From Dehalococcoidales bacterium (GTDB lineage Bacteria; Chloroflexota; Dehalococcoidia; Dehalococcoidales; RBG-16-60-22): 64,000 nucleotides of DNA. Below, one piece after another: positions 4,597-63,013 of this stretch. The translations under genes and the position numbers were made by a program. Below the pieces are notes generated by a model. It ran no database searches. It had not been told where the DNA came from and saw nothing but the letters and a program-made list of their open reading frames with translations. The stretch spans positions 215,700 through 279,699 of the forward strand of contig JBEKDZ010000003.1 of NCBI GenBank assembly GCA_050014095.1. Direction: 5' to 3'. Within the stretch, counting starts at the first letter, position 1. Each line of letters starts with the position of its first letter.

Positions 4597-5853
4597 TTAT
4601 TTTGCAGGCCACGGTGGTTTAGGATATACGAATGGCGCGGTGTTGTTCTTATCATTGTCAACGACTTCGAAGATACCGTTCTGCCATTGTCCTATCTGAC
4701 CATTGTAGCATGCCTGCGGTAGTAGACCGCCGCCTTTGCCGTTCCCCTGGATATCCCAATAAAAGTCTCCTAATAATGTTGGGAAGTGAGTGGTCTTGTA
4801 AACTTCCAGGATTTTGTCGGTATCAAGGGTACCGGCTTTTGTGATTGCCTGCGCTAAGTACTGGAGAGTGGAATAGTATAAATTACTGCCCCAATAGTCC
4901 ATGTTTCCCTCGCCGCCGACAATTGGCCGGATTTTATCTGCGTAAGCGGCAAGCGCGGGCGAGCTCTTCGCGTTCCAGGCGCCCTCGCCACAAACATCCT
5001 CTAGAGCTTTGCCAAACGTGAGGGGAAAGAACCCGAAGTTACAGCCTGGGCCGATGAGAATACATTTGGGGTTAAAATTAAGCGCCATGGCTGTCTGCAT
5101 GAAAAGAATATTCTGGTTCGGATAGGCGAACATGCAGAAGACATCAGGATTTAAATCCTTGGCTTCTTTGATTATCGGGTCCATGTCCGTAATGGAAATC
5201 GGGATACTCTTGGCTTCCAGGACCTGGATGCCATGTAAACCACACTCACTCTGCATGGTAAGGTTATATTCAGCGCCATGCAGGTCGTTCATGAAGCAGA
5301 TATAAACCGTCTTGGCGCCCTTTGCGGCTATAAGGTTCACAAACATGGGTAGCTGGAAATGGTTAGAGTAGTTCAAAACCGCGAAGACATAGGGCATATT
5401 AGCCAGCTGCGGTTCCATGGTGGTAGCGCCGCCTTCGCCGCAGAGCATCATCGTCTTGTATTTATTGGCGATAGGTGTCGCGGCGAACATCATAGCTGTG
5501 CCGGTAGGCCCAAAGAGGAAGTTAACATGATCCTGCGTGCACAGCTTTTCAATATTCTTGACGCAGACGCCGGTGTCGCTGGCATCATCGTACTCAATCA
5601 ATCTTACCTTGAGTTTCTTGCCACCGACATCGATGCCGCCGGCAGCATTGACTTCATCTATCCACATCTTATAGACAGGCGCGTAGCCATATGCCTGGAA
5701 ACCAGCCTGTGGGCCGGTAATATCGCGGGAAGCGCCGATAACGATTTCGGTCTGTGTCGTGCCGCCCCCGCCGCAGCCAGTAAAGGTAACGGGCACAATA
5801 AGAGCTAAACAAAGGATTAATGGTATTGAAATTTTTAATATTTTACTCCACAT
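4597..5853 (-). CDS. ABC transporter substrate-binding lipoprotein (LivK/LivJ-like, type I periplasmic binding fold)
   Basis: Signal peptide plus lipobox (LALIVPVTFTGCGGGG). Start placed at ATG 5853, preceded by AAGGAGAGG 6 nt upstream, rather than the track start at 5907. Confidence 0.8.
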   Translation of the reverse strand: MWSKILKISIPLILCLALIVPVTFTGCGGGGTTQTEIVIGASRDITGPQAGFQAYGYAPVYKMWIDEVNAAGGIDVGGKKLKVRLIEYDDASDTGVCVKNIEKLCTQDHVNFLFGPTGTAMMFAATPIANKYKTMMLCGEGGATTMEPQLANMPYVFAVLNYSNHFQLPMFVNLIAAKGAKTVYICFMNDLHGAEYNLTMQSECGLHGIQVLEAKSIPISITDMDPIIKEAKDLNPDVFCMFAYPNQNILFMQTAMALNFNPKCILIGPGCNFGFFPLTFGKALEDVCGEGAWNAKSSPALAAYADKIRPIVGGEGNMDYWGSNLYYSTLQYLAQAITKAGTLDTDKILEVYKTTHFPTLLGDFYWDIQGNGKGGGLLPQACYNGQIGQWQNGIFEVVDNDKNNTAPFVYPKPPWPAK

Positions 5854-6426
5854 TATTTGCCTCTCCTTTTTGATAATTTTCTCGGGACTTTTTGCCACTT
5901 TTGTCACATATAGCTACCTCCCTTTTTTACATTACTTTTTATGATTCAACATAGCGTAGCACAACGGCTACTAAATTGCAACACAAAATTATCTATATAG
6001 CGTATAGTACTTTTAGTTTATACTAGTTCTCGGTAAGAAACTTAAAAAAATAGATAAAGGTAAAGCTATTTTAATACCTGAAACTAATTCTGTCAAATAT
6101 TTGGTTTTTAAGGTTTGTTCAAAACGTAAAATAGCTATAAATCAATCGGAACGAAAGCAGTTATCTGCCTCTCGTTGTCACTCTCCAGACAATCAGGATG
6201 AAAAGCAGACCGGCGGCAAAAGCAGGTACGCCTGAACTTTGGCCAGAAATTAGGAGAGCTTTTCACGACCCATCCCAATATGCTCAAAAGGGTGAGGCAA
6301 ATCTCTACTCTTATAGGCTGATAATATTCTGGACAATATAATTGGTTTTCGTTATACTTTCAGTGTAATAACCAAGAAGGTACGATCAACTTTAAGACGT
6401 GATTGTTGATAGGTCTAAGGGGCGTT

Positions 6427-9400
6427 ATGCGAAGAACATTAGGTCGTGCGGTTCTCCCACTGCTGACACTAGCTTTAGTACTGATAATACTCTGTGCCAG
6501 TTCCGTTAGTGTTCAGGCAGCCACCCCCGCCATTACCATTAATCCAATAAGCGGGCTTCCAGGCACCGTGGTGACCGTTACTGGCTCCGGCTTCAGTGCC
6601 AACGAGACGGGCGTCAGGATAACCTTCGATAGTAACCCGATTACTTCGGCTATAACGGCTGACTCTCTGGGAAACTGGAGCGGCACTTTCACCGTTTCCA
6701 CCGCGGTATTAGGACCCCATACGGTGAGTGCCTTTGGTTCCATTACTCCTTCCGGCGTGGTTCCTAACGTAACTTTTACGTTGCTGAATCCCAGCCTCTC
6801 TATCAGTCCAGCAAATGGGCCTCCGGGTACTTCGGTGACTGTTATCGGCTCAGGCTTTGCCGCCAGTGAAACCGGCATTACAATAACCTTTGACGGTAAC
6901 CCTGTCGCCTCGGGCATTTCGGCCAACTCCCTGGGTAACTGGATCGGTACCTTCATTGTCCCCGCTTCATCCTCCGGTGCCCATAGTGTTAGTGCCTACG
7001 GTCCCATTACCCTGTCCGGTTTTGTTCTTAGCATCACCTTCACAGTCCCGAATCGCATCCTTGCCATTAACCCGAGAAGCGGACCTCCGGGTACTGTGGT
7101 GACCGTCACCGGCTCTGGATTTGGTGCCGGTGAAACCGGCATAACAATAACCTTCGACGGTAACCCTGTCGCCTCGGGCATTTCGGCCGACTCCCTGGGG
7201 AACTGGAGCGGCACCTTCACTGTTCCCGCTGCGCCCTCAGGTGCCTATGCACTCAATGCCTACGGTTCCATTACCCCGGCTGGCTTCATACACTCTATAA
7301 ACTTCATGGTGAACCCCACCATTGCCGTTAGTCCGACAAGCAGGCCTCCAGGCGGTTCGGTGACCGTCACTGGCTCTGGATTTGGTGCCGGTGAAACCGG
7401 CATAACAATAACCTTCGACGGTAACCCTGTTGCCTCGGGCATTTCGGCCAACTCCCTGGGGAACTGGAGCGGCACCTTCACTGTTCCCGCTGCGCCCTCC
7501 GGTGTCCATGCACTCAATGCCTACGGCTCTATCACCCTGACTGGCTTCATACCCTCTATAAACTTCATGGTGAACCCCACCATTGCCATCAATCCGACAA
7601 GCAGGCCTCCGGGCAGTCCGGTGACCGTCACTGGCTCTGGATTTGGTGCTGGTGAAATCGGCATAACAATAACCTTCGACGGTAACCCTGTTGCCTCGGG
7701 CATTTCGGCCAACTCCCTGGGGAACTGGAGCGGCACCTTCACCGTTCCCGATTCACCCTCCGGTTCCCATACGGTGAGTGCCTACGGCTCTATCACCCTG
7801 GCTGGCTTCATACCCTCTATAAACTTCATGGTGAACCCCACCATTGCCATCAATCCGACAAGCGGGCCTCCAGGCGGTTCGGTGACCGTCACCGGCTCTG
7901 GATTTGGTGCTGGTGAAACCGGCATAACGATAACGTTTGATGGTAACCCTGTTGCCTCGGGCATTTCGGCCAACTCCCTGGGGAACTGGAGCGGTACTTT
8001 CACTATTCCTGCTTCAGTTCTAGGGTCCCACAGCGTTGGAGCCAAGGGCTCGATTACCCAGGGGGGCAGCCTCGGTGGAACCAACTTTGGGGTCACACCA
8101 GGTATCTCATTAAAACCCATCTCCGGCTATGTGGGGAGCACGGTTCAAATCAGCGGCTCCGGCTTCGCCGTTAATAGTCCCCTCACCTTTACTTATGACG
8201 ACAAAGAGATTCTGGCAGAAGGGGCCACCACCGATGCTACCGGTAGCTTCGTTAATTCGTTCGTCGTGCCCAAGTCGAAGGCTGGCGGTCACACTATCAG
8301 CGTCACGGACGTGCAAGGGAACAGCGCCAAAACCACTTTCAACATGGATAGCACCCCACCACCCATGCCCGTCCCGCTTTCCCCCGATGACGACGCCAGA
8401 ATTGGTATACTGGGGAACATCACTCCAAACTTTACATGGTCTAACGTCTCCGACCCCAGCGGCGTTACCTACTCTTTTCAAGTGGATACGTACCCGGACT
8501 TCTCTCAGCCTGTATTAGACAAGACGGATATCACGGCCAGTCACTATACTCTAACGGCGATAGAAGCTTTGCCGCGTGGCCAGTTTTACTGGAGGGTTAA
8601 AGCCATTGATGGTGCTTCTAATGAGAGCGCATGGTCACAGGTACGGTTACTAAAGTCCGGGCTCATGCCGCTGTGGGCTCTAGTGCTCATAATCCTGGTC
8701 GGCATCGCCGCCGTAGGCTCAGGTGGCTATTTCGGCCTGCTTCTTCTGAAAACGCGTCGGCGACAGGTAGTAACTGTTCCTGAAATCACGGTGCCTCAGA
8801 TTATTACAGGGGAATGGCGAGAGATTGAATCTGCCGAGGAAACTCCAAAATTACCCTGGAGGCTGTCTCTACCCCAGCCGACAAAAGGAGCCAAGAAACT
8901 CTCTACCGAAGACCAAGCCCGCCTCATGGTGATTATAGACTTTGCTCAGTCTTTGCCCCTGGTGGAGCCCGGTTATAATGTGAACTGGCTGGTTGACCTG
9001 ATAGAAACTGGAAGGGGGATCAAGATGTCAGCTCCGGTTTATAAGCAGTTGCTTAAAGGCGGACTTGAGGTGAGCTATGAGCCACAATGGACGCGCCACC
9101 CCATTTATCAGGACCTGTTGTCCTTATTAGAGGGGCAGTCAATCTTGCAGGACCTGAACGGGTTTGTTGACGCAGTTAACCGGTGCGCCTCCCAAGTAGT
9201 TTCGTTCCTGCAAGATATCTACCAAGATACGATCAAAGAAGCCCCGCCGGGCTTTATGAAGAAGGGTGGTTGGGAATTTATCTCCTCGGTTTACGCTGAT
9301 GCCGTGAGTTGGTTCCGCGGGAAATCTCTGCATGACCCCTCGGAGCGGGACTACATTATAAAACCTCAAAAGGGTCTTGTGCACGGGACAAAGGCCCTAG

Positions 9401-9618
9401 AGTTAAAAGGCGAGGAGACCACATCTTTCGCTGGCCCGATTATACGGGCCTCCAGTGATGAGGAAGCCCTGCGGCTCCGGTCTCTTCACCTGAAGCTGCG
9501 CTGCGCGTACAGGGACAATAACAGGGCTAAAGAAATCGCTACCATGCTCACCCAACTGGAGGTGCAGCGGAGCCGGTTACTTATTTTCTTTAGCGAATTC
9601 GGCAGACTCAAGCAATAA
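6427..9618 (+). CDS. large surface protein: signal peptide, 7 IPT/TIG-like Ig repeats, FN3-like module, one TM helix, ~290-aa cytoplasmic domain of unknown function
   Basis: ATG 6427 gives MRRTLGRAVLPLLTLALVLIILCASSVSVQA (signal peptide). Repeats carry the motif INPxSGPPGxxVTVTGSGFxxxETGITITFDGNPV. TM helix LWALVLIILVGIAAVGSGGYFGLLLL is followed by KTRRRQ. Confidence 0.85.
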   Translation: MRRTLGRAVLPLLTLALVLIILCASSVSVQAATPAITINPISGLPGTVVTVTGSGFSANETGVRITFDSNPITSAITADSLGNWSGTFTVSTAVLGPHTVSAFGSITPSGVVPNVTFTLLNPSLSISPANGPPGTSVTVIGSGFAASETGITITFDGNPVASGISANSLGNWIGTFIVPASSSGAHSVSAYGPITLSGFVLSITFTVPNRILAINPRSGPPGTVVTVTGSGFGAGETGITITFDGNPVASGISADSLGNWSGTFTVPAAPSGAYALNAYGSITPAGFIHSINFMVNPTIAVSPTSRPPGGSVTVTGSGFGAGETGITITFDGNPVASGISANSLGNWSGTFTVPAAPSGVHALNAYGSITLTGFIPSINFMVNPTIAINPTSRPPGSPVTVTGSGFGAGEIGITITFDGNPVASGISANSLGNWSGTFTVPDSPSGSHTVSAYGSITLAGFIPSINFMVNPTIAINPTSGPPGGSVTVTGSGFGAGETGITITFDGNPVASGISANSLGNWSGTFTIPASVLGSHSVGAKGSITQGGSLGGTNFGVTPGISLKPISGYVGSTVQISGSGFAVNSPLTFTYDDKEILAEGATTDATGSFVNSFVVPKSKAGGHTISVTDVQGNSAKTTFNMDSTPPPMPVPLSPDDDARIGILGNITPNFTWSNVSDPSGVTYSFQVDTYPDFSQPVLDKTDITASHYTLTAIEALPRGQFYWRVKAIDGASNESAWSQVRLLKSGLMPLWALVLIILVGIAAVGSGGYFGLLLLKTRRRQVVTVPEITVPQIITGEWREIESAEETPKLPWRLSLPQPTKGAKKLSTEDQARLMVIIDFAQSLPLVEPGYNVNWLVDLIETGRGIKMSAPVYKQLLKGGLEVSYEPQWTRHPIYQDLLSLLEGQSILQDLNGFVDAVNRCASQVVSFLQDIYQDTIKEAPPGFMKKGGWEFISSVYADAVSWFRGKSLHDPSERDYIIKPQKGLVHGTKALELKGEETTSFAGPIIRASSDEEALRLRSLHLKLRCAYRDNNRAKEIATMLTQLEVQRSRLLIFFSEFGRLKQ
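6529..8349 (+). repeat. in-frame tandem repeat array: 2 x 264 bp, 4 x 261 bp, 1 divergent 249-bp unit
   Basis: The marker string ggcat(a/t)acaataacctt recurs at 6874, 7138, 7399 and 7660, with diverged forms at 6610 and 7921. ataaacttcatggtgaacccc recurs at 7297, 7558 and 7819. Repeat 4 versus repeat 5 cores differ at 3 of about 123 nt by manual alignment. Confidence 0.95.
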
Positions 9619-31316: not shown

Positions 31317-31667
31317 ATGCACCCATATAATCCCAAACTAAAGCAACTGTCCCAAGAACTTAGAAAAAATATGACCGATGCTGAAAAACTGCTGTGGTCT
31401 AAGCTTAGAATAAAACAGCTTAAAGGTTTGATGTTCTCACGTCAAAAGCCTTTAGGCGAATATATCGCCGACTTTTATTGCCACCAAGCAAAGCTGGTGA
31501 TTGAAGTCGATGGCGGTCAGCACTTTTCCGATGATTCTATTAAATACGATAAAATCAGAGATGAGTTCATAGGTAGTATGGGGTTGACGGTGCTAAGATT
31601 CACAAATAACGACGTGTTGAATAATATTGACGGTGTTATTGAAGTAATTGAGAGAAATCTCCCTTAA
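31317..31667 (+). CDS. DUF559 (Vsr-like) endonuclease domain protein
   Basis: ADFYCHQAKLVIEVDGGQH...DKIRDEFIGSMGLTVLRFTNNDV is the DUF559 pattern. 116 aa. Confidence 0.8.
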   Translation: MHPYNPKLKQLSQELRKNMTDAEKLLWSKLRIKQLKGLMFSRQKPLGEYIADFYCHQAKLVIEVDGGQHFSDDSIKYDKIRDEFIGSMGLTVLRFTNNDVLNNIDGVIEVIERNLP

Positions 31668-31671
31668 TTAC

Positions 31672-31925
31672 TAAAAACTCCCTTCGTCCCTCTTTACGAA
31701 AGAGGGAGATGGGGAAAGGCAGCTGGATTCCTCCCATTTGCCCATCCCTTCTCCAAATTCGTTTAGTTCTAAAATCCCTCTCTCATCTCCCCTTACGAAT
31801 GGGAGACGATATCATTTTCTAATTCCAAAACAGCTACAACGACAGTCAGTGAGATTGCCACGTCACTTCGTTCCTCGCAATGACAGGGCGGTATTTGCCC
31901 ATTCCTTCTCCAATTTCGTAAAATA
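31672..31925. repeat. cluster of nested hairpin repeats (families A and B) bracketed by a 27-nt direct repeat
   Basis: TCCCTCTTT-acg-AAAGAGGGA (31687-31707), TCTCCC...GGGAGA (31786-31806), GAGATTGCCACG...CTCGCAATGACA (31851-31885). Direct repeats at 31736-31762 and 31893-31919. Confidence 0.8.
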
Positions 31926-33944: not shown

Positions 33945-35045
33945 ATGGCAGTTATAGATTTCGGCGGCGTAAAGGAAGAGGTGGTCATGCGGAGCGAGTT
34001 CTCTATGGAGAAAGCCCGTAAGGTTTTAAAGGATGAAACGATAGCGGTAATCGGATATGGGGTACAGGGACCGGGACAGTCCTTAAATATGAAAGACAAC
34101 GGCTTCAACGTTATCATCGGGCAATCAAAAGACTTCATGCGGGACTGGGACCGGGCGGTGGCGGACGGCTGGAAGCCCGGTAAAGACCTATTCGAGATAG
34201 AAGAAGCAGCCAAACGCGGCACGATTATCGAGATGCTGACCAGCGATGCCTCCCAGCGGTTAATCTGGCCGACTATCAAAAAACAACTAACGGCTGGCAA
34301 AGCGCTGTATTTCTCACACGGATTCTCTATCGTCTATAAAGACCAGACAGGTATTATCCCGCCCAAAGATGTGGATGTTATCATGGTGGCGCCTAAGGGG
34401 AGTGGGACATCACTGCGGCGCAACTTCCTCTCCGGGGCAGGCATTAACGCCAGCTTTGCTATTTTCCAGGATGCTACGGGGCGGGCTAAAGAGCGCTGTC
34501 TGGCGCTGGGTATTGCTATCGGGTCCGGTTACCTCTTCCCGACGACCTTCGAAAGCGAGGTCTACAGCGACCTGGTGGGGGAGCGGGGGGTTTTGATGGG
34601 GGCGCTGGCGGGAATCATGGAAGCGCAGTACGACACCTTAAGAGCCCACGGACACACGCCCAGCGAAGCCTTTAACGAAACCGTCGAGGAGCTGACGGAA
34701 AGCCTGATAAAGCTAGTAGCGGAGAACGGGATGGACTGGATGTATGCTAACTGTTCCGCTACCGCCCAAAGGGGTGCCCTCGACTGGAAACCAAAGTTCA
34801 AAAAGGCGGTCATGCCCATCTTTAAAGACCTTTATAAGAGGGTGGCGAACGGGACGGAAACAAAACGTGTGATTGAGGCCTGCGGCGGAGCTAACTACAG
34901 GGAACTACTGGGCAAAGAATTATCGGTGATGGGCAACTCCGAGATGTGGCAAGCCGGCAAGGCTACCCGCTCTTTACGTCCTAAGGAGCCGGAAAAAGCT
35001 AATATCAAAACGGCTAAAGGGACGGCGGGGAGACAAACGAATTAA
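33945..35045 (+). CDS. ketol-acid reductoisomerase-like oxidoreductase (divergent)
   Basis: IGYGVQGPGQSLNMKDNGFNVIIG (Rossmann), VMVAPKGSGTSLRR, TTFESEVYSDLVGERGVLMG. Same order as KARI motifs but diverged from canonical IlvC, and no ilv neighbours. Confidence 0.6.
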   Translation: MAVIDFGGVKEEVVMRSEFSMEKARKVLKDETIAVIGYGVQGPGQSLNMKDNGFNVIIGQSKDFMRDWDRAVADGWKPGKDLFEIEEAAKRGTIIEMLTSDASQRLIWPTIKKQLTAGKALYFSHGFSIVYKDQTGIIPPKDVDVIMVAPKGSGTSLRRNFLSGAGINASFAIFQDATGRAKERCLALGIAIGSGYLFPTTFESEVYSDLVGERGVLMGALAGIMEAQYDTLRAHGHTPSEAFNETVEELTESLIKLVAENGMDWMYANCSATAQRGALDWKPKFKKAVMPIFKDLYKRVANGTETKRVIEACGGANYRELLGKELSVMGNSEMWQAGKATRSLRPKEPEKANIKTAKGTAGRQTN

Positions 35046-35057
35046 AAATTAATGCTT

Positions 35058-35392
35058 TATTGTCATTGCGAGTCCTTCCGTAGAAGGACGTGGCAATCTC
35101 CCGAATGAATTCACGACGATGATAGAGATTGCCGCGTCATCCCGATTACATCGGGATTCCTCGCAATGACAGTTTTTAATTATTGCGCCTTTCTTATGAC
35201 AAGGTTGCAGCAAAATCTCCCTCCTGTCCCTTCCTTCGGCTTCGCTCAGGACAGGCCTTACGAACGAGGGACGCCAATACCCCAAAAAGGGGTGTTAAAG
35301 AGGGGCATCAGCCCCTCTTAATTGAATATAACCCCCTCTCCAAACATATTAATAACAGGTTTGCTCCCTGTTCCGTTTGGAGAGGGGGCAAG
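35058..35392. repeat. cluster of nested hairpin repeats (families A, C, D and others)
   Basis: TGTCATTGCGAG...CGTGGCAATCTC (35061-35100) faces its inverted copy (35125-35171). Also CCTGTCC/GGACAGG (35223-35255), AAGAGGGGC-atca-GCCCCTCTT (35298-35319), and a 14-bp stem CCCCCTCTCCAAAC/GTTTGGAGAGGGGG with a 29-nt loop (35332-35388). Confidence 0.85.
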
Positions 35393-35469
35393 GGGGTGAG
35401 GCTTAGAGTAGATTCTGGCTTTTTCTGGGACGACACTTTCTCTCATTATTGCGCCTTTCTTATGACAAG
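35179..35469 (+). repeat. perfect 25-nt direct repeat bracketing 241 bp of hairpin repeats
   Basis: ATTATTGCGCCTTTCTTATGACAAG occurs at 35179-35203 and again at 35445-35469, spaced 266 bp. Confidence 0.9.
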
Positions 35470-35515
35470 TGTTAAAATAATATCAAACGATTATTTTCCC
35501 TCAAAGGGGTAAGGC

Positions 35516-36145
35516 ATGTTTACCGGCATCGTAGCAGAAGTAGGGAGTATTGTCTCCGTTAGCGCGGGCAAGCTAACCATCGGCGCCAGGCAGACGCTCA
35601 AGGATTTACAAATCGGCGGGAGCATCGCCGTCAACGGCGTCTGTTTAACGCTGACCGATTTCAATGACAAAACGTTTTCTGTGGACGTCATGCCGGAAAC
35701 ACTGAAAAGAACCAACCTGGGGCAATTGCACGTTGGCGATAGAGTAAATCTGGAAAGGCCCCTTAAGCTTAATGGGGAAATCGGCGGGCATTTTGTGCAG
35801 GGCCATATCGACGACACTGGCAGGGTCGTCCAAATCGCTAAAGAAGGCGAGGCAATGCTGATGCGCTTCCAGGCAGAACCCGAGGTAATGCGTTATATCG
35901 TGCCCAAGGGCTTTATCGCCGCGGACGGGACAAGCCTGACGGTGACCACCAAAGAAGCCAATACCTTCGGCGTATCCATCGTCGGCTATACCCGCGAGCA
36001 TACGATTTTGGCGGAAAGAAAACCGGGCGACCTCGTTAATCTGGAAGTGGACATCATCGGCAAATACGTAGCTGAACTAAATAAAGCACCAAGCACAGGC
36101 TTGACCGCCGAGTTTCTACGCGAGCACGGTTTCATGGTGAACTAA
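35516..36145 (+). CDS. ribE: riboflavin synthase
   Basis: MFTGIV start, duplicated lumazine-binding halves (NGVCLT / DGTSLT). Confidence 0.9.
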   Translation: MFTGIVAEVGSIVSVSAGKLTIGARQTLKDLQIGGSIAVNGVCLTLTDFNDKTFSVDVMPETLKRTNLGQLHVGDRVNLERPLKLNGEIGGHFVQGHIDDTGRVVQIAKEGEAMLMRFQAEPEVMRYIVPKGFIAADGTSLTVTTKEANTFGVSIVGYTREHTILAERKPGDLVNLEVDIIGKYVAELNKAPSTGLTAEFLREHGFMVN

Positions 36146-36154
36146 GGAGAAAAT

Positions 36155-37381
36155 ATGGCACTGGCAACTATACCGGAAGCTATTAAAGATATCAAGGCAG
36201 GCAAATTCGTTATCGTGGTGGACGACGAGGACCGTGAAAATGAAGGCGACCTTGTCATGGCAGCCGAGAAAGTGACAGCGGAATCCATCAACTTCATGGC
36301 TAGATATGGGCGGGGACTTATCTGCATGCCGATGACCGGCGAAAGGCTGGACGCGCTGCGGATACCCATGATGGTAAGCAATAACACGTCGCACTTCGGC
36401 ACGCCATTTTCGGTACCAGTCGAAGCTAGAGAGGGCACTACCACCGGCATTTCGGCGGCGGACCGGGCAAGGACAGTGCAAGTGATGGTCGACACCAAGA
36501 CCAAACCTGAAGACATACTTATGCCGGGGCACATGTTCCCATTACGCGCACGGGAAGGCGGCGTATTGGTACGCACTGGGCAGACCGAGGCGACAGTAGA
36601 CCTTGCCAGAATGGCGAGGCTTAAACCAGCGGGAGTCTGCTGTGAAATCATGAATGAAGACGGTACCATGGCACGGATGCCGCAACTTGAAGTATTTGCC
36701 AAAAAACACGATTTAAAAATAATCAGTGTTGCCGACTTAATCGCTTACCGCTACCGCCACGAGCGATTGGTGACGCGGGTGGCGGAAGCCAAGCTGCCAA
36801 CGAAATACGGTAATTTTAGAGTAATCGCCTACAAAAGCACCACCGACCCCGACGAGCACCTGGCGATGGTGATGGGCGATGTGAACACCGACGAGCCAGT
36901 GTTAGTCCGAGTGCATAGCCAATGCCTGACCGGCGATGTTTTCCACAGCATGCGCTGCGACTGCGGCGAGCAGATCGAAATGGCGATGAAGCGTATCGCC
37001 GATGAGGGGCGGGGAGTCGTGCTTTATATGCGGCAGGAAGGGCGGGGCATCGGTATCCACAACAAGATAAAAGCCTATGCCCTCCAGGATAAAGGACTGG
37101 ATACCGTCGAAGCAAACCTATCGCTGGGCTTCAAAGCCGACCAGCGTGATTATGGCATCGGCGCGCAGATACTCGCCGACCTGGGAATACACAATATGCG
37201 GCTGATGACGAACAATCCCAAGAAAATGAGTGGGCTGGAAAGCTACGGACTTAAGATAACCGAGCAGCTACCCATCACCACCAAGCCCAACCCGCATAAC
37301 CGCCGCTACCTCCGCACCAAGCAGGAAAAACTGGGGCATCTCCTGACCATCGCGGATGCCGATAGCGATAAAACAAACTAA
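36155..37381 (+). CDS. ribBA: bifunctional 3,4-dihydroxy-2-butanone-4-phosphate synthase / GTP cyclohydrolase II
   Basis: [11 protein letters not shown] (DHBP synthase) and [19 protein letters not shown] (GCH II zinc site). Confidence 0.9.
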
Positions 37382-37391
37382 GGAGAATGAT

Positions 37392-37859
37392 ATGAGCAAG
37401 ACTTACGAAGGGAATCTACTAGGCAAGGGATTGAAATTCGGGATTGTGGTCTCGCGGTTTAACGAGTTCTTCAGTACGAAGCTGCTGGAAGGCGCGAAAG
37501 ACGCCCTGCTGCGCCACGGGGTGGTTGATACAGATATCGAAGTTGCCTGGACACCGGGCTCGTTCGAGATACCGCTGATAGCGCAGAAAATGGTGGAAAG
37601 CAAGAAATATAACGCCGTAATCTGCCTGGGGGCGGTGATTAGAGGGGGGACGCCGCACTTCGACTACATTGCGTCAGAAGTCGCCAAAGGTATCGCCAAC
37701 GTGGGACTGAAGACGGGCGTGCCGGTAATCTTCGGGGTAATCACTACCGATACGCTGGAGCAGGCTATCGAGCGCTCCGGCACCAAGGACGGCAATAAGG
37801 GCTTCGACGCGGCGGTAAGCGCCATCGAAATGGCGAACCTGATAAAGACGATTGTGTAG
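37392..37859 (+). CDS. ribH: 6,7-dimethyl-8-ribityllumazine synthase
   Basis: [33 protein letters not shown]. Start moved to ATG 37392 after AGGAGA. Confidence 0.9.
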
Positions 37860-37914
37860 TTGTTGACTAGTTGTTAGTATAGAGTGAGAAAAGGGGCGGT
37901 TTCTTGACCTTACC

Positions 37915-38130
37915 CCCTACCCCCTCTCCAAACTTGAGTATGAATAATACTGTGTTTGCTATGTTTGGAGAGGGGTTTTTTGTTTCTTAAGAGGGGGCTA
38001 GCGCCCCCTCTTTAACACCCCGGTTGTGGGGAAAAGGGGTGAACCTCTCCCCCTTGTGTTCCCCCTCTCCGTACACAGAGAGGGGAAGTAATTATAAAAA
38101 CCCTCTTAATCTCCCTTTACGAAAGGGAGA
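37915..38130. repeat. cluster of hairpin repeats (families C, D, B) downstream of ribH
   Basis: 13-bp stem CCCCTCTCCAAAC/GTTTGGAGAGGGG with a 29-nt loop (37921-37975) followed by a T-run. Also AAGAGGGGGC-tagc-GCCCCCTCTT (37989-38012), CCCCTCT/AGAGGGG (38062-38085) and TCTCCCTTT-acg-AAAGGGAGA (38110-38130). Confidence 0.85.
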
Positions 38131-38299
38131 GACTGGCAAAGGTAACAGAACCCAGTCTTATCAGAACTATGCCCTAGAATATGGGAATAGAATATGTCTA
38201 TATCACGATTACTCTAAAGAACACCATGTGAACGCTAAGGCGATAAAGCAGATGCACACCGACTTTAGCCCGATTGCCGGTCTAGCGTTATCGGCTTAA

Positions 38300-38332
38300 C
38301 AGAAATAAATAACAACAAACCGAGGCTCGGTT
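38300..38332 (-). terminator. rho-independent terminator of the membrane-protein gene
   Basis: AACCGAG/CTCGGTT hairpin (38318-38332), followed on the minus strand by TTTGTTGTTATTTATTT. Confidence 0.55.
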
Positions 38333-38338
38333 GCGTCC

Positions 38339-38875
38339 TTAGGGTTTAGTTGTCGTAGGAGGAGATGATGTTGACTTAGTTGGACGCGTAGCGAAGTACA
38401 TGACAACCGTGAAAAGGAAACCGCCAATATACAAGAGCGCGGGGACTAATACGGGTGACGTGTCACGGTCTATCCAAACTATTGCTAACCCACCGATGAA
38501 AAACATACTACATCCCAGCCAGACCTTGTTGCCTTCCTGTTTGAAGCTTATTTTGTCGTGTAGGATTATAAAGGCTATTGCTGAAATTACACTAGCCAAC
38601 ACTCGAAAGGCTCCTGCGACAGCGAATGCATAAGCCATTCCTTCCGGTATACTTGTTAGTGTGATTTTGAGGCCGGATTGGGACCATCCGTTTGAGATTG
38701 TTAGCCAGGCAAAGCCCATAACGATTAAGCCTGATGCAGCGCGTACGATGTTCGTGATGCGCCGTTGTTTTGCGGTCAAGTTCACGGGGTTGCTACTCGT
38801 GTCTGATATTAGTGTAACGAGATTGTCCAGGGCGATGGCGAGCCCCGACACTATAAATACGTACCAAGGGTTCAT
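38339..38875 (-). CDS. hypothetical membrane protein (5-6 TM)
   Basis: 178 aa, hydrophobic segments throughout, no recognised motif. Confidence 0.5.
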   Translation of the reverse strand: MNPWYVFIVSGLAIALDNLVTLISDTSSNPVNLTAKQRRITNIVRAASGLIVMGFAWLTISNGWSQSGLKITLTSIPEGMAYAFAVAGAFRVLASVISAIAFIILHDKISFKQEGNKVWLGCSMFFIGGLAIVWIDRDTSPVLVPALLYIGGFLFTVVMYFATRPTKSTSSPPTTTKP

Positions 38876-39034
38876 AATTTGATAGCCTCCCGTTATGATT
38901 TATTACTTTTTTCAGATTCGAGTTGCTCGTTGAGCCGATTGAGCTTTATTTCAATTTCGCGCAACTTACGGTTTAAGCGTCGATTGTTCATGCGCTAATT
39001 ATAGCACGCGCTCGCGCGATATCAAATTGTCTTA

Positions 39035-39286
39035 TTATGTAACCTTGTAAACCACGTCTCCCGGTCTAACGCGCTCGGGGACTTTAATGCCGACGGACTG
39101 GCCCTTTTTAGCCTGTTTAACGTTCTCGTTGTCGATCTGCATCGAGGTCAAGTCCATCTCGATATCCGTGGTGTGGCCCTTGATGTGAATCTTGTCCCCC
39201 ACCTTCAGCGTGCCGGTCATATCAATGCCGGCGACCACTACATGAGCAAAGAAATCGCTTACCTTGCCGACTGCTTTCTCCTTCAT
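39035..39286 (-). CDS. small EF-Tu domain-2-like beta-barrel protein
   Basis: 83 aa. GTLKVGDKIHIKG...GQSVGIKV...PGDVVYKV resembles translation-factor domain II. Strong RBS GGAGGGAGG. Confidence 0.6.
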   Translation of the reverse strand: MKEKAVGKVSDFFAHVVVAGIDMTGTLKVGDKIHIKGHTTDIEMDLTSMQIDNENVKQAKKGQSVGIKVPERVRPGDVVYKVT

Positions 39287-39382
39287 ATTTCCTCCCTCCT
39301 TAATAAATTATATCGGGCAAAATTACAGTTTGTGTTAAGGATTATACGCCCCGAGATTCAGGAAATCAACACCAGTCGAACC

Positions 39383-39481
39383 GTCATTGCGAGGAGTCCC
39401 GATAAAATCGGGACGACGTGGCAATCTCCATCATTGGTTTTGTTCTGACATAGGGATTGCCACGCTTCGCTCGCAATGACA
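39383..39481. repeat. composite palindrome made of two inverted family-A units
   Basis: GTCATTGCGAGG-[GTCCCGAT aaa ATCGGGAC]-GACGTGGCAATCTC (39383-39428) faces GGGATTGCCACG...CTCGCAATGACA (39453-39481). Confidence 0.85.
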
Positions 39482-47582: not shown

Positions 47583-47709
47583 AAGAGGGGCTAACGCCCC
47601 TCTTTTTATTTCACCCCCTTCCTTTGGCAAAGGAAGGGGGACAGGGGGATAGATTACTTATAGAAACAAAAAGGGCGAGGACGGATTCTTCACTGCGTTC
47701 AGAATGACA
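47583..47709. repeat. hairpin repeats after pheT; the first one doubles as a terminator
   Basis: AAGAGGGGC-taac-GCCCCTCTT plus T-run (47583-47607), 12-bp stem CCCCCTTCCTTT-ggc-AAAGGAAGGGGG (47614-47640), GGATTCTTCACTGCGTTCAGAATGACA (47683-47709). Confidence 0.8.
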
Positions 47710-62464: not shown

Positions 62465-63013
62465 ATGAAGAACAACCACAATACATATATCCATTCTCGG
62501 CGCTCAATCAGGCTTAAAGGTTACGATTATTCTCAATCCGGAGCATATTTCGTTACCATTGTCACCCATCAAAGGATATTATTATTTGGAGATATAACAA
62601 ACCCCGTAGGAGCGAATTTAAAACCTTTCCTTACCCTGAATCAATATGGAGAGATAGTACAAACATCCTGGTATGATATTCCTAATCATTATTCCAATAT
62701 TTTATTAGATTCTTTTATCATCATGCCAAATCATGTTCACGGGATAATTATGATTAATAATCCTGTAGGGGCGGGTTTAAAACCCGCCCCTACGAAAAAT
62801 CATCCCCTTTCTGAAATCATTCGCGCGTTTAAAACATTTTCCGCCAGGCGTATTAACGAAATACATAAAACATCTAGCGTACCCATATGGCAACGTAACT
62901 ATTATGAGCGTATCATTAGAGACGAAAAAGAACTCAACTTAATACGTGAATATATTGAAAACAATATCATTAGGTGGGAATCCGATAAAGAAAATCTAAA
63001 ATCTATCCATTGA
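62465..63013 (+). mobile_element. REP-associated tyrosine transposase (RAYT, IS200-like HUH Y1 family, COG1943)
   Basis: SIRLKGYDYSQSGAYFVT, HUH motif MPNHVHGII, catalytic-Tyr region WQRNYYERIIRDEKELNLIREYIENN. No IS ends recognised. Confidence 0.8.
62765..62793 (+). repeat. GC-rich hairpin inside the RAYT ORF
   Basis: GTAGGGGCGGG-tttaaaa-CCCGCCCCTAC (11-bp stem) encodes VGAGLKPAPT. A decayed copy GTAGGAGCGAATTTAAAACCTTTCCTTAC lies at about 62606-62634 and encodes VGANLKPFLT. Confidence 0.8.

Follow-up and report, generated by a model that had tools for sequence, protein, structure and literature searches.

In Dehalococcoides, the genomic islands at ssrA form tandem arrays, and cis-mobilizable elements are likewise known to accrete (McMurdie et al., 2011; PMC3146451). 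These islands are kilobases long, are targeted to the end of an RNA gene, and many of them carry a DsiB/DsiA serine-recombinase module. REP/BIME mosaic clusters contain several short G+C-rich palindrome families arranged as intergenic mosaics (Nunvar, 2010, PMC2817692; Di Nocera, 2013, PMC3733652). Integron cassette arrays and CALINs consist of small tandem cassettes beside a promoter (Cury, 2016, PMC4889954). Protein-coding modules with a gene-end anchor make up the arrays ascribed to homology-facilitated illegitimate recombination, such as the orphan immunity genes of the Vibrio cholerae T6SS (Kirchberger, 2017, PMC5361080) and orphan Rhs/CDI 3' ends. The locus described here lies upstream of ribE in a 64,000-nt stretch of DNA from a Dehalococcoidales bacterium (hereafter the window). 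We read it as a small array that undergoes recombination, not as the footprint of a transposon.

The duplicated 25-mer and the ribE promoter

The 25-mer ATTATTGCGCCTTTCTTATGACAAG occurs exactly twice in the window, on the plus strand at 35179-35203 and 35445-35469, with 241 bp between the copies, and both copies sit between the ilvC-like gene and ribE. The identical direct repeat claimed in the original prediction was borne out by window-wide exact and mismatch searches. With up to three mismatches allowed, 0 further matches were found on both strands (0 expected from 100 shuffles), and a separate repeat search of the window gave the same two copies. The two copies have different neighbouring bases, A/C to the left and G/T to the right, which sets the length of the repeat at exactly 25 nt. 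The features of the locus are listed below, with related loci given as L numbers.

33945-35045, plus strand: ketol-acid reductoisomerase gene (KARI, ilvC-like; Pfam KARI_N and KARI_C), the left conserved anchor of the variable spacer
35061-35171, no strand assigned: A-family MITE-like element of 111 bp, with 12-nt terminal inverted repeats TGTCATTGCGAG/CTCGCAATGACA and internal hairpins (inverted repeats I6, I5 and I16)
35179-35203, plus strand: 25-mer copy 1, a predicted orphan promoter fragment with -35 TTGCGC (35183-35188) and spacer but no -10; it aligns with the single promoter copy of L086
35204-35285, plus strand: unit head (82 nt), made of the linker GTTGCAGC (35204-35211) and the E-type hairpin module AAAATCTCCCT...GACGCCAATACCCCAA, with the CCTGTCC/GGACAGG stem included
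35223-35229 and 35249-35255: arms of the CCTGTCC/GGACAGG hairpin
35279-35283 and 35289-35293: arms of the ACCCC/GGGGT hairpin
35286-35444, plus strand: unit tail T2, with the right arm of ACCCC/GGGGT, the D and C hairpins (35298-35319 and 35332-35388) and a 56-nt stretch ending in CTTTCTCTC; inverted repeats I12 and I4 belong to this tail
35298-35306 and 35311-35319: arms of the family D hairpin, AAGAGGGGC/GCCCCTCTT
35332-35345 and 35375-35388: 14-nt arms of the family C hairpin
35445-35469, plus strand: 25-mer copy 2, the -35 (35449-35454) and spacer of the predicted functional ribE promoter; the block is conserved in 20 orthologous loci
35470-35478, plus strand: extended -10 TG-T-TAAAAT, present after copy 2 only; TGnTAnAAT is conserved in the 20 loci
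35516-37859, plus strand: ribE-ribBA-ribH operon (Pfam Lum_binding, DHBP_synthase, GTP_cyclohydro2 and DMRL_synthase), the right conserved anchor
35516-36145, plus strand: ribE (Pfam)
36155-37381, plus strand: ribBA (Pfam)
37356-37859, plus strand: ribH (Pfam)

The proposed gene context, an ilvC-like gene/ribE intergenic region with a rib operon downstream, agrees with the Pfam assignments, and the KARI gene is syntenic with ribE in L002-L008, L086-L090 and L092. The A-family element is the resident left flank and lies outside the duplicated unit. Elsewhere in the window there is a copy of it at 39382-39481 and a half copy at 31851-31886. Hairpins had been said to make up most of the 241 bp, and a rough count puts them at about 55-60%; the inverted-repeat search found none in the last 56 nt of the interval (35389-35444). 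The reverse complement of 37908-38031 is 73.6% identical to the equivalent part of L087 unit 2 (5007-5128), shares exact 14-17-nt blocks with the tail in the window, and is collinear by eye with 35276-35400.

An ORF runs across the unit (35183-35512), but it has no Pfam match and no homologue among 5.8 billion proteins, and a coding unit was rejected. In the Rfam search of the whole window at gathering thresholds, two tRNAs and neither an FMN riboswitch nor any other known RNA were found. At E ≤1, the region 34000-36500 gave one chance miRNA match and no riboswitch before the rib operon. This is a lineage without an FMN riboswitch at the rib operon.

The downstream copy had been described as running into a plausible promoter for ribE (TTGCGC, an 18-nt spacer and TAAAAT); TTGCGC lies at 35449-35454, and the -10 is of the extended type. 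Alignment of the ribE upstream regions supports this, in that the pattern TTGnnn-N18-TGnTAnAAT is conserved in 20 orthologous Dehalococcoidales loci. The ribE promoter is absent from the list given by a generic promoter and terminator scan of the plus strand, because TTGCGC agrees with TTGACA at only 3/6 positions and falls below the scan threshold; the assignment therefore relies on the conservation in the 20 loci. Judged from this alignment, the 25-mer is the predicted upstream half of the native ribE promoter, that is, its -35 hexamer and spacer, and the spacer probably includes the operator-like CTTATGACAAG. No -10 stands at usable spacing after 35183-35188, in line with the earlier description of the upstream copy. 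Under every reading considered below, the orphan -35/spacer copies and the conserved CTTATGACAAG point to putative protein-based control of the riboflavin genes.

Unit number and composition in related loci

One copy of the 25-mer is the common state, found in 13 related loci that carry it (L086 and 12 others), always before ribE, and L004, L006 and L007 retain only its CTTATGRCAAGTG core. An empty site with a single 25-mer had been predicted and exists in L086, whose RibE is 92% identical. L086 has the same A-family element and GTTTTTA flank as the window (35046-35178 at 94.7% identity), then one 25-mer and the -10, and is the exact empty site with the left flank as in the window (join A-element-25-mer-TGTTAAAAT). 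The 25-mer might instead have been a dispersed repeat, which the original prediction had named as evidence against itself. This idea was rejected, with the 25-mer found only before ribE orthologues: a scan of the metagenome collection found it in 3 contigs only, one copy each and before ribE orthologues, and it had no match in viral contigs.

Related uncultured Dehalococcoidales carry 0, 1 or 3 units at the same ribE site, and within a clade of ~8% divergence the number is 0 in L086, 1 in the window and 3 in L087. L090 has one unit, with a tail unlike that of the window. The three units of L087 come with four 25-mer copies, and one of them carries a MazF toxin-antitoxin operon. The divergent L005 also has one unit, with a different junction (25-mer plus TGTT joined to GGGGAGTCT), another linker and an E module that has diverged. 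The same ~82-nt head comes after every extra 25-mer of the window, L087 and L090 (alignment A1), and the 25-mer plus head (~107 nt) is common to all window-type units. Since the tails differ between units, the match to a tandem duplication, with sequence shared beyond the short repeat, is only partial. The unit in the window is 266 bp long and lies directly before the working -10. The linker and head pattern (GYTGCAGCAAAATCTCCCTCCTGT) and the tail-end pattern were found only at the ribE promoter, adjoining 25-mers; E-type modules without a 25-mer are present elsewhere.

These relatives also bear on whether the duplication is real. An assembly artefact is an unlikely source of it, judged from the recurring junctions, and the concatenation of two strain variants of the spacer at a shared k-mer has a negligible chance of being the explanation. 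Such an error would suit the source, a metagenome-assembled genome with many short repeats, and the L085 contig ends within the unit. Against it, the right junction of the unit is seen again in L085 and the unit-to-unit junction in L087, and the same junctions occur in the separate samples L085, L087 and L090. Over 3328 bp, the separate Logan assembly of run SRR7028477 (L001) agrees with the window at every base, although it possibly comes from the window's own reads. Assemblers of such metagenomes normally use k-mers >25 nt, which also counts against an artefact.

The head in the window matches that of L087 unit 1 at 79/82 positions and the tail matches that of L087 unit 2 at 156/159 (98.1%), and the last 48 nt of the tail are identical in L085. 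From these identities, the unit in the window is apparently a recombinant of two L087 units, with the head of unit 1 and the tail of unit 2, an outcome expected of a crossover within the head's conserved 3' portion. Copy-number differences and recombinant units are both found among close relatives. Within L087, the same 55 nt are found at the start of unit 1 and at the unit 2/3 junction. They contain the 6-nt end of a T2 tail, TCTCTC, to the left of the first 25-mer, which indicates that the array once reached further left. The T1-type tails (L090 and L087 unit 1) together with the 25-mer are collinear with the native upstream region and promoter of the single-copy loci L088 and L006, and this unit content matches local sequence. 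The end of the L087 toxin-antitoxin unit, compared by eye, resembles the hairpin-TTT-25-mer flank of single-copy alleles.

Flanking genes of the window and L087 are 89-93% identical (third codon positions 77-81%), compared with 98.1% for the tail. High conservation of the unit is no more than suggestive of mobility, because 7% of coding 159-nt windows are equally similar. The four closest genomes form a star-like tree, with 56% support for a nested L086, and the order of gain and loss is not recoverable from it. A CRISPR-like array was rejected on the anatomy, with a common head in all intervals (150-734 bp), and the window scans gave no cas genes. The ribE spacer is an accessory-gene hotspot without a recombinase, with AAA_21 and DUF4435 genes in L003, SIR2_2 in L083 and MazF in L087. 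By sequence resemblance, not Pfam, L005 has an ABC transporter and a TetR-like gene, and L091 the end of a similar TetR-like gene.

Origin of the units

The original prediction read the repeat as a duplication of about 25 nt of target made by one insertion, and named relatives with both copies around unrelated sequence as evidence against this. Relatives do carry two or more copies with partly unrelated sequence between them, as the different tail in L090 and the three units in L087 show. The repeated segment is the 25-mer with its ~82-nt head and not the 25-mer alone. The duplication boundaries are not independent of local conservation, for conservation in the 20 aligned ribE upstream regions starts no more than 1-2 nt from the repeat's left edge. 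Such an edge is expected if the promoter fragment at the end of each unit was copied from an allele; under a staggered cut it would be only a coincidence. A search for other hairpin clusters flanked by long direct repeats had also been suggested. The 341 kb of related DNA contain no other intergenic block within an exact direct repeat of at least 18 nt, hairpin-module repeats aside, which favours a locus-specific accident over a general insertion mechanism. The fallback offered with the prediction, a replication- or repair-based origin in place of a transposase, comes close to the explanation preferred here. Target duplication by a single insertion is not supported.

Classical transposition of a 241-bp non-autonomous element, with a 25-nt staggered cut giving a target-site duplication, is in our view already effectively refuted and has very little probability left. 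Relative to the empty site, the insertion does have an exact direct repeat at both sides, and some IS4-group elements (IS1634, IS1549) make long, variable duplications. However, no terminal inverted repeats joining the ends of 35204-35444 were found among the 19 pairs listed, and no copies of the block with other duplications around them occur in the 341 kb. The same 25-mer and junction recur with different inserts and in arrays, and the left edge of the repeat is the promoter-conservation edge. The only transposase class seen here is of the IS200/IS605 type, and these enzymes make no such duplications (Nunvar, 2010, PMC2817692).

We favour segmental duplication or concatenation of the promoter-upstream region, followed by unequal crossover and exchange between alleles, with a probability of about 0.45. 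The ancestral allele would already have had hairpin modules upstream of the promoter, and a stretch reaching from the E module as far as the end of the promoter spacer would have been duplicated in tandem. Alternatively, a copy from another allele may have been joined through one illegitimate junction between the 25-mer and GYTGCAGC. A simple tandem-duplication junction at an AAAAT microhomology does not fit, since the linker GYTGCAGC stands between the promoter part and AAAAT. The repeated 25-mers and heads would then be substrates for ordinary homologous recombination, that is, unequal crossover, deletion between direct repeats and exchange between strains, the last anchored on the right in the conserved promoter and ribE and on the left in E modules or 25-mers. 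Such events would give 0, 1 or 3 units, recombinant units, swapped tails (the toxin-antitoxin operon included) and different left flanks, and a dedicated transposase or integrase would be unnecessary. The exact 25 nt in the window may be what remains of a crossover with an allele of different left flank, of the A-element type like L086; the crossover would be confined to the conserved promoter block because this is the only sequence shared by both alleles. Only the last copy keeps a -10 and is predicted to drive ribE, with the upstream copies left as putative orphan promoter fragments.

Several observations count against this favoured explanation. No allele was found with GYTGCAGC and an E head upstream of the promoter but lacking a preceding 25-mer, and the founding junction of 25-mer and linker was not caught. 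The window-type units share one junction, and three different tails all start after ACCCCAA; both facts would follow just as well from a site-specific process. The high identity of the window and L087 units needs recent exchange or constraint. The different L005 junction requires that a rare event happened twice or that the junction mutated later.

Site-specific accretion would take the 25-mer, linker and head as an attachment site. Small non-autonomous circles (25-mer, head and cargo) would enter and leave the ribE promoter through a serine or tyrosine recombinase whose gene lies elsewhere, building tandem arrays like the Dehalococcoides ssrA islands or streptococcal cis-mobilizable elements. 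We consider this unlikely, but it matches a good part of the pattern. The topology is that of the ssrA islands, with an intact target at one end, target direct repeats bounding the units and conserved element-side sequence, and the repeat boundaries are constant across the T1, T2 and toxin-antitoxin cargos. Locus specificity is strict, the units are more alike between genomes than the flanking genes, and the 25-mer and linker form an imperfect inverted repeat in the fold, TTGCGCCTT-N9-AAGGC(TGCA)GCAA, shaped like a recombinase core site. However, neither the window nor the called genes of the related loci nor the inserted genes of L003, L008, L083 and L087 yielded a recombinase, and the L005 ORFs, judged by eye, show none. 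In the 64-kb window, Pfam gave no integrase or resolvase among the 56 ORFs (no Phage_integrase-type hit). A search for a free element with an attP gave no match to the attP-type junction among 2.9 million viral contigs and none to the spacer in plasmid and phage records. The supposed attP left arms are wholly different between units, and one resembles by eye the native flank of single-copy alleles. The T1 tails match native upstream regions, the position of the left edge at the promoter-conservation edge would be a coincidence, and the L005 junction differs.

Flank capture by an HUH single-strand transposase of the IS200/IS605 or RAYT type is quite improbable. The E-type head would be the left end, and the enzyme would cut behind GACAAG twice, in the target and at a surrogate right end within the promoter. 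Head, tail and promoter fragment would be excised as one piece and re-inserted 3' of the same promoter GACAAG, so that tandem units would arise with no real duplication of the target. At 62465-63013 the window has a gene for a Y1 transposase-like protein, which shows HVH and YY motifs and a Pfam Y1_Tnp match of 31.5 bits (cut-off 23). Its best NCBIfam match is the REP-associated tyrosine transposase, but the REP_Tyr_transpos score of 59.8 bits is below the family cut-off of 80. The spacer hairpins are REP/BIME-like, and the E module of L006 abuts AATGACAGG, similar to ATGACAAGG in the 25-mer. Capture would account for the fixed right edge, the homology-set left edge, the conserved head, and the variable cargo with its right part like native promoter-upstream DNA. 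Against it, other E-module copies lack a conserved 5' target sequence, the 25-mer has no evident right-end hairpin, and the junction in L005 differs. This class of enzyme is not known to use surrogate ends.

More broadly, and still doubtful, the promoter upstream half may be the portable attachment site of a cassette system without its own integrase, minimal, integron-like and promoter-anchored. Its units, each a promoter fragment with a structured head and variable cargo (a toxin-antitoxin operon at the largest), would be cut out and re-inserted at the ribE promoter by a trans-acting recombinase or HUH transposase, and would also be exchanged between Dehalococcoidales strains, whose genomes are otherwise known for ssrA-specific islands. 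If site-specific integration or HUH capture is true, the locus would represent a new, very small mobile-cassette system with a defined 25-nt site. If segmental duplication and recombination is true, streamlined, repeat-rich genomes would build and reshuffle small arrays by homologous recombination alone, using as substrate a duplicated fragment of an essential promoter, at a site where relatives have gathered defence and toxin-antitoxin genes. The locus also cautions that a long, perfect direct repeat on both sides of an insertion is not always a target-site duplication, and that the edge of a repeat can mark simply where homology between two alleles ends.

Comparison with known arrays

The locus shares with integron cassette arrays and CALINs the small tandem cassettes beside a promoter, one cassette with a toxin-antitoxin pair and its own promoter, and a structured repeat of ~107 nt (25-mer and head) that separates the cassettes. 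In contrast to them, most units are geneless, the repeat is a copy of the adjacent promoter, and intI was not found, although an integron integrase is not required for a CALIN. attC cores (RYYYAAC/GTTRRRY, 40-150 nt apart) were absent from either strand of the spacers of the window, L087, L090 and L005. An integron or CALIN identity was rejected on the absence of attC core pairs and of an integrase among the window ORFs.

Palindrome families A, C, D and E and the GTAG hairpin recur in the window and its relatives, as in the intergenic mosaics of REP/BIME clusters. The GTAG-tagged hairpin family, the RAYT-like gene and the rapid cluster turnover between relatives are also like those of REP/BIME and RAYT systems. 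REP-type repeats can act as join points for duplications. A BIME cluster, however, is normally without a duplicated fragment of the neighbouring promoter around it, and the repeat that defines the unit here is promoter-derived and locus-specific, not a dispersed REP.

The ssrA islands belong to the same bacterial class and likewise keep an essential single-copy target intact at one array end. Their units are bounded by a target direct repeat of 20-25 nt with conserved element-side sequence adjoining, as found in the window, L087 and L090, some units are without integration genes, and unit number varies by strain. The units here differ in being 173-760 bp long and mostly non-coding, with no recombinase found, and in having a promoter as target instead of an RNA gene end, with tails like the native upstream DNA of other alleles.

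The T6SS and Rhs arrays differ from this locus in their modules and anchor, which are here mostly hairpins and a 25-nt promoter stretch; in both cases the mechanism is inferred. The proposed logic would be shared. A conserved stretch would anchor incoming allelic DNA at one end, the other end would be joined illegitimately, and successive events would leave modules each with a copy of the anchor, with no integrase involved.

Repeat identity and the ribE promoter

The sequence ATTATTGCGCCTTTCTTATGACAAG, referred to here as the 25-mer, occurs at 35179–35203 and 35445–35469. Elsewhere in the window, neither strand has another match even when 3 mismatches are allowed; the number expected by chance is zero. 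The bases next to the two copies differ on both the left and the right side, which limits the repeat to exactly 25 nt. As the original prediction described, the intervening 241 bp contain the hairpin CCTGTCC/GGACAGG, a family D hairpin (9-nt arms) and a family C hairpin (14-nt arms); an ACCCC/GGGGT hairpin is present as well, and the final 56 nt of the interval are non-hairpin. Its placing of the repeat between an ilvC-like gene and ribE also holds: the KARI gene (33945–35045) is followed by ribE, ribBA and ribH. The source organism is an uncultured Dehalococcoidales bacterium, and run SRR7028477, as assembled separately in Logan, matches the window at 100% across 3328 bp.

Orthologous loci were drawn from species-representative genomes, metagenomes scanned for the pattern TTGCGCCTNTCTTATGACAAG, and contigs encoding the closest RibE relatives. 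In an alignment of 20 ribE upstream regions, a single conserved block extends from position 2–3 of the 25-mer through TGnTAnAAT, and no conservation was found upstream of it. Because this block reads as TTGnnn, an 18-nt spacer and an extended -10, the 25-mer is, judged by this layout, the -35 hexamer plus spacer of the predicted native ribE promoter. The spacer core is kept in the distant relatives L004, L006, L007, L008 and L012, and it is all that is left of the 25-mer in L004, L006 and L007. Neutral promoter spacers are seldom this constant.

35455–35472: conserved spacer CTTATGRCAAGTG, an imperfect palindrome; the same block is present in 20 loci, across genera

A putative protein operator may overlap the promoter spacer. 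An Rfam search detected no FMN riboswitch before the rib operon; together with the conserved spacer, this absence suggests that this lineage may control its riboflavin genes through a regulatory protein. The 25-mer is not a dispersed repeat. All three metagenome matches (3/3) are single copies immediately before ribE, and no 25-mer was found in viral contigs.

Filled and empty sites and the anatomy of the repeat units

Single copies of the 25-mer are carried by the relatives L002, L003, L008, L012, L082, L083, L084, L086, L088, L089, L091 and L092. L086 is similar to the window (RibE 92% identical; genes ~92–95% identical at the DNA level) and shows the order KARI stop, 111-bp A-family element as in the window, GTTTTTAT, single 25-mer and -10. 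The empty site envisaged by the original prediction therefore exists, in exact form, and the window has 266 bp more at this spot. L086 may never have gained a unit or may have lost it; the four closest genomes form a well-supported, star-like clade, which fits either history. In L085 (RibE 94%), one 25-mer is visible adjoining a contig break; its right junction is the same as that of the window, and the contig begins 48 nt upstream of this junction. In L090 (RibE 87%), the 2 copies are exact and 173 bp separate them; the tail in this interval is a different one. L087 (RibE 90%) has 4 copies separated by 175-, 266- and 758-bp units, the last carrying a TTGACA-N17-TATAAT promoter, an antitoxin and a PemK/MazF toxin. 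In L005 (RibE 77%), the upstream copy has diverged (4 mismatches); TGTT, a linker of another sequence and an E-type module come after it. The array was seen in just five or six uncultured genomes.

One common head follows every extra 25-mer in the window, L087 and L090 (alignment A1). It consists of the linker GYTGCARC and an E-type hairpin module ending in GACGCCAATACCCCAA, with the inner hairpin in two versions, h1 and h2. The head pattern was found only beside 25-mers, and plain E modules are present in other intergenic regions. Past ACCCCAA, the tails diverge into the following types:

T1: second E-like hairpin and F module
T2: the window's hairpins D and C and 56 nt
T3: toxin-antitoxin operon

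The h1 head of the window unit matches L087 unit 1 (79/82) and its tail matches L087 unit 2 (156/159). By these matches, the window unit is a recombinant that joins two adjacent units of the L087 type, broken where the 3' part of the head is conserved. Within L087, a stretch of 55 nt is identical at the beginning of unit 1 and at the junction between units 2 and 3, and this stretch places TCTCTC, the final 6 nt of a T2 tail, left of the first 25-mer; the array thus probably once reached further left. T1 tails, taken with the 25-mer to their right, run collinear with the promoter and native upstream DNA that L088 and L006, both single-copy alleles, carry; by eye the T3 right end looks like the hairpin-TTT-25-mer flank seen in single-copy alleles, among them L002 and L089. 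Because of these resemblances, each unit looks like a copy of some allele's promoter-upstream region, ending in that allele's promoter fragment. The window and L087 tails are 98% identical, versus 89–93% for flanking genes (third codon positions 77–81%). This higher similarity is only suggestive of recent exchange or constraint, since 7% of coding windows are as similar as the unit tail.

Hairpin families, a Y1-like gene and accessory genes

Several hairpin families recur in the window and in relatives too.

35061–35171, 39382–39481: A family (half copy 31851–31886)
L086 9812–9922, L087 4640–4724, L090 5613–5750: A-family copies in relatives
37920–37976: C family
47583–47604: D family
31771, 38095, 40570: E-like
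62465–63013 (+): Y1 (HUH) transposase-like protein, 182 aa, A+T-rich gene; Pfam Y1_Tnp above cut-off

In A-family elements the 12-nt terminal inverted repeats (TGTCATTGCGAG/CTCGCAATGACA) are fixed, but internal hairpins and lengths (~85–140 bp) vary; the elements resemble MITEs whose cores can be exchanged. Their right terminus, ATGACAG, is similar to ATGACAAG, which ends the 25-mer. Hairpin clusters show fast turnover, and the window cluster downstream of ribH could not be aligned with L086 or L087. This region (37860–39035) is a hairpin mosaic in which a C+D composite matches the reverse complement of a T2-type tail. The reverse complement of 37908–38031 matches the corresponding part of L087 unit 2 (73.6%) and has exact blocks in common with the window tail. 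The region also contains an ORF at 38339–38875 (-) of 178 aa without a Pfam family, and the ~1.1-kb stretch downstream of ribH has no counterpart in L086.

The best NCBIfam match of the Y1-like protein is a REP-associated tyrosine transposase, under the family cut-off. The coding sequence of this protein contains, at 62765–62793, the perfect GTAG-tagged hairpin GTAGGGGCGGGTTTAAAACCCGCCCCTAC (29 nt), which encodes ...VGAGLKPAPT... and is similar to the hairpin before the 25-mer in L089 and L092. Given this REP-transposase-like gene with its GTAG hairpin and the recurring families, the window hairpins are classed from sequence as REP/BIME-like. Transposases of the Y1/RAYT class generate no target duplications (PMC2817692). 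Capture of flanking DNA by a Y1/RAYT-like enzyme cutting after GACAAG would account for most features, but direct support exists for none of its steps, and we consider it improbable.

The KARI-ribE spacer is an accessory-gene hotspot in relatives, with genes sitting directly upstream of the conserved promoter block.

L003 2219–3811: fused AAA_21+DUF4435 protein (Pfam)
L083 277–1386: SIR2_2 protein (Pfam)
L087 5340–5880: MazF toxin-antitoxin pair (Pfam)
L005 1089–3596: ABC-transporter-like and TetR-like ORFs (resemblance of translations/sequence only)
L091 2–415: end of a TetR-like gene similar to that of L005 (resemblance only)

No recombinase was found beside these genes in L003, L083, L087, L005 or L091, nor any integrase or resolvase among the 56 window ORFs. 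Accretion through a site-specific recombinase supplied in trans would have its topology in common with Dehalococcoides ssrA islands (PMC3146451). No recombinase for it was found in the window or the related loci, it requires variable attP arms resembling native flanks and leaves the boundary coincidence to chance, and we consider it unlikely.

The region is otherwise syntenic but varies at one further spot, just upstream of the SBF transporter gene, where relatives carry defence genes. Elsewhere in the window, an IPT/TIG-domain gene contains six tandem repeats of 261–264 nt (6522–8132), which are 63–90% identical to the reference copy with exact common runs of up to 84 nt.

L087 1–821 (-): AIPR abortive-infection gene, upstream of the SBF gene
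L090 1537–3133: N6/N4 methyltransferase and MvaI/BcnI restriction enzyme, upstream of the SBF gene
31317–31667 (+): DUF559 (Vsr-like endonuclease domain) ORF, adjoining the hairpin cluster 31770–31890 upstream of the SBF gene
6403–9618 (+): 1071-aa IPT/TIG-domain protein gene

Origin of the array and comparison with known systems

The original prediction proposed that the 25 nt were duplicated as a target during insertion of the hairpin block, or that the block was copied by template switching. Classical target-site duplication does not fit: terminal inverted repeats are missing from the insert, 341 kb of related DNA yielded no further copy flanked by a duplication of its own, one junction recurs with differing inserts, and the left edge of the repeat is the edge of promoter conservation.

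The explanation we favour, with a probability of about 0.45, is that a segment was duplicated or alleles were concatenated, and that homologous recombination then acted on the result. The first join would have linked the promoter-spacer end to an upstream-region copy starting at the E module, either by tandem duplication or because allelic DNA, with its anchor in the promoter/ribE, was captured through a single illegitimate join. Capture by a homology anchor and an illegitimate join has been proposed for other arrays (PMC5361080). Later recombination between 25-mers or heads could then produce growth to three units, precise loss and recombinant units, as well as the exchange of tails with other alleles and a new left flank. 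If the left flank came from an allele sharing only the promoter block (A-element type, as in L086), the crossover would be confined to that block, and the window repeat would thus be exactly the conserved 25 nt. We infer the event order and the enzymes involved from the observed structures, boundaries and homologies.

In membership tests, the ribE-promoter locus does not qualify as an integron or as a transposon with target duplication. In its description it resembles an accretion array, but the recombinase that such an array requires was not found in the window or the related loci. Reading the array as mobile cassettes is doubtful; if true, the locus would gain interest. The nearest known patterns include tandem islands bounded by target-derived repeats (ssrA, Dehalococcoides), REP/BIME mosaics, and arrays ascribed to homology-facilitated illegitimate recombination; the locus itself is a copy-number-variable array delimited by a repeat that is a fragment of an essential promoter.
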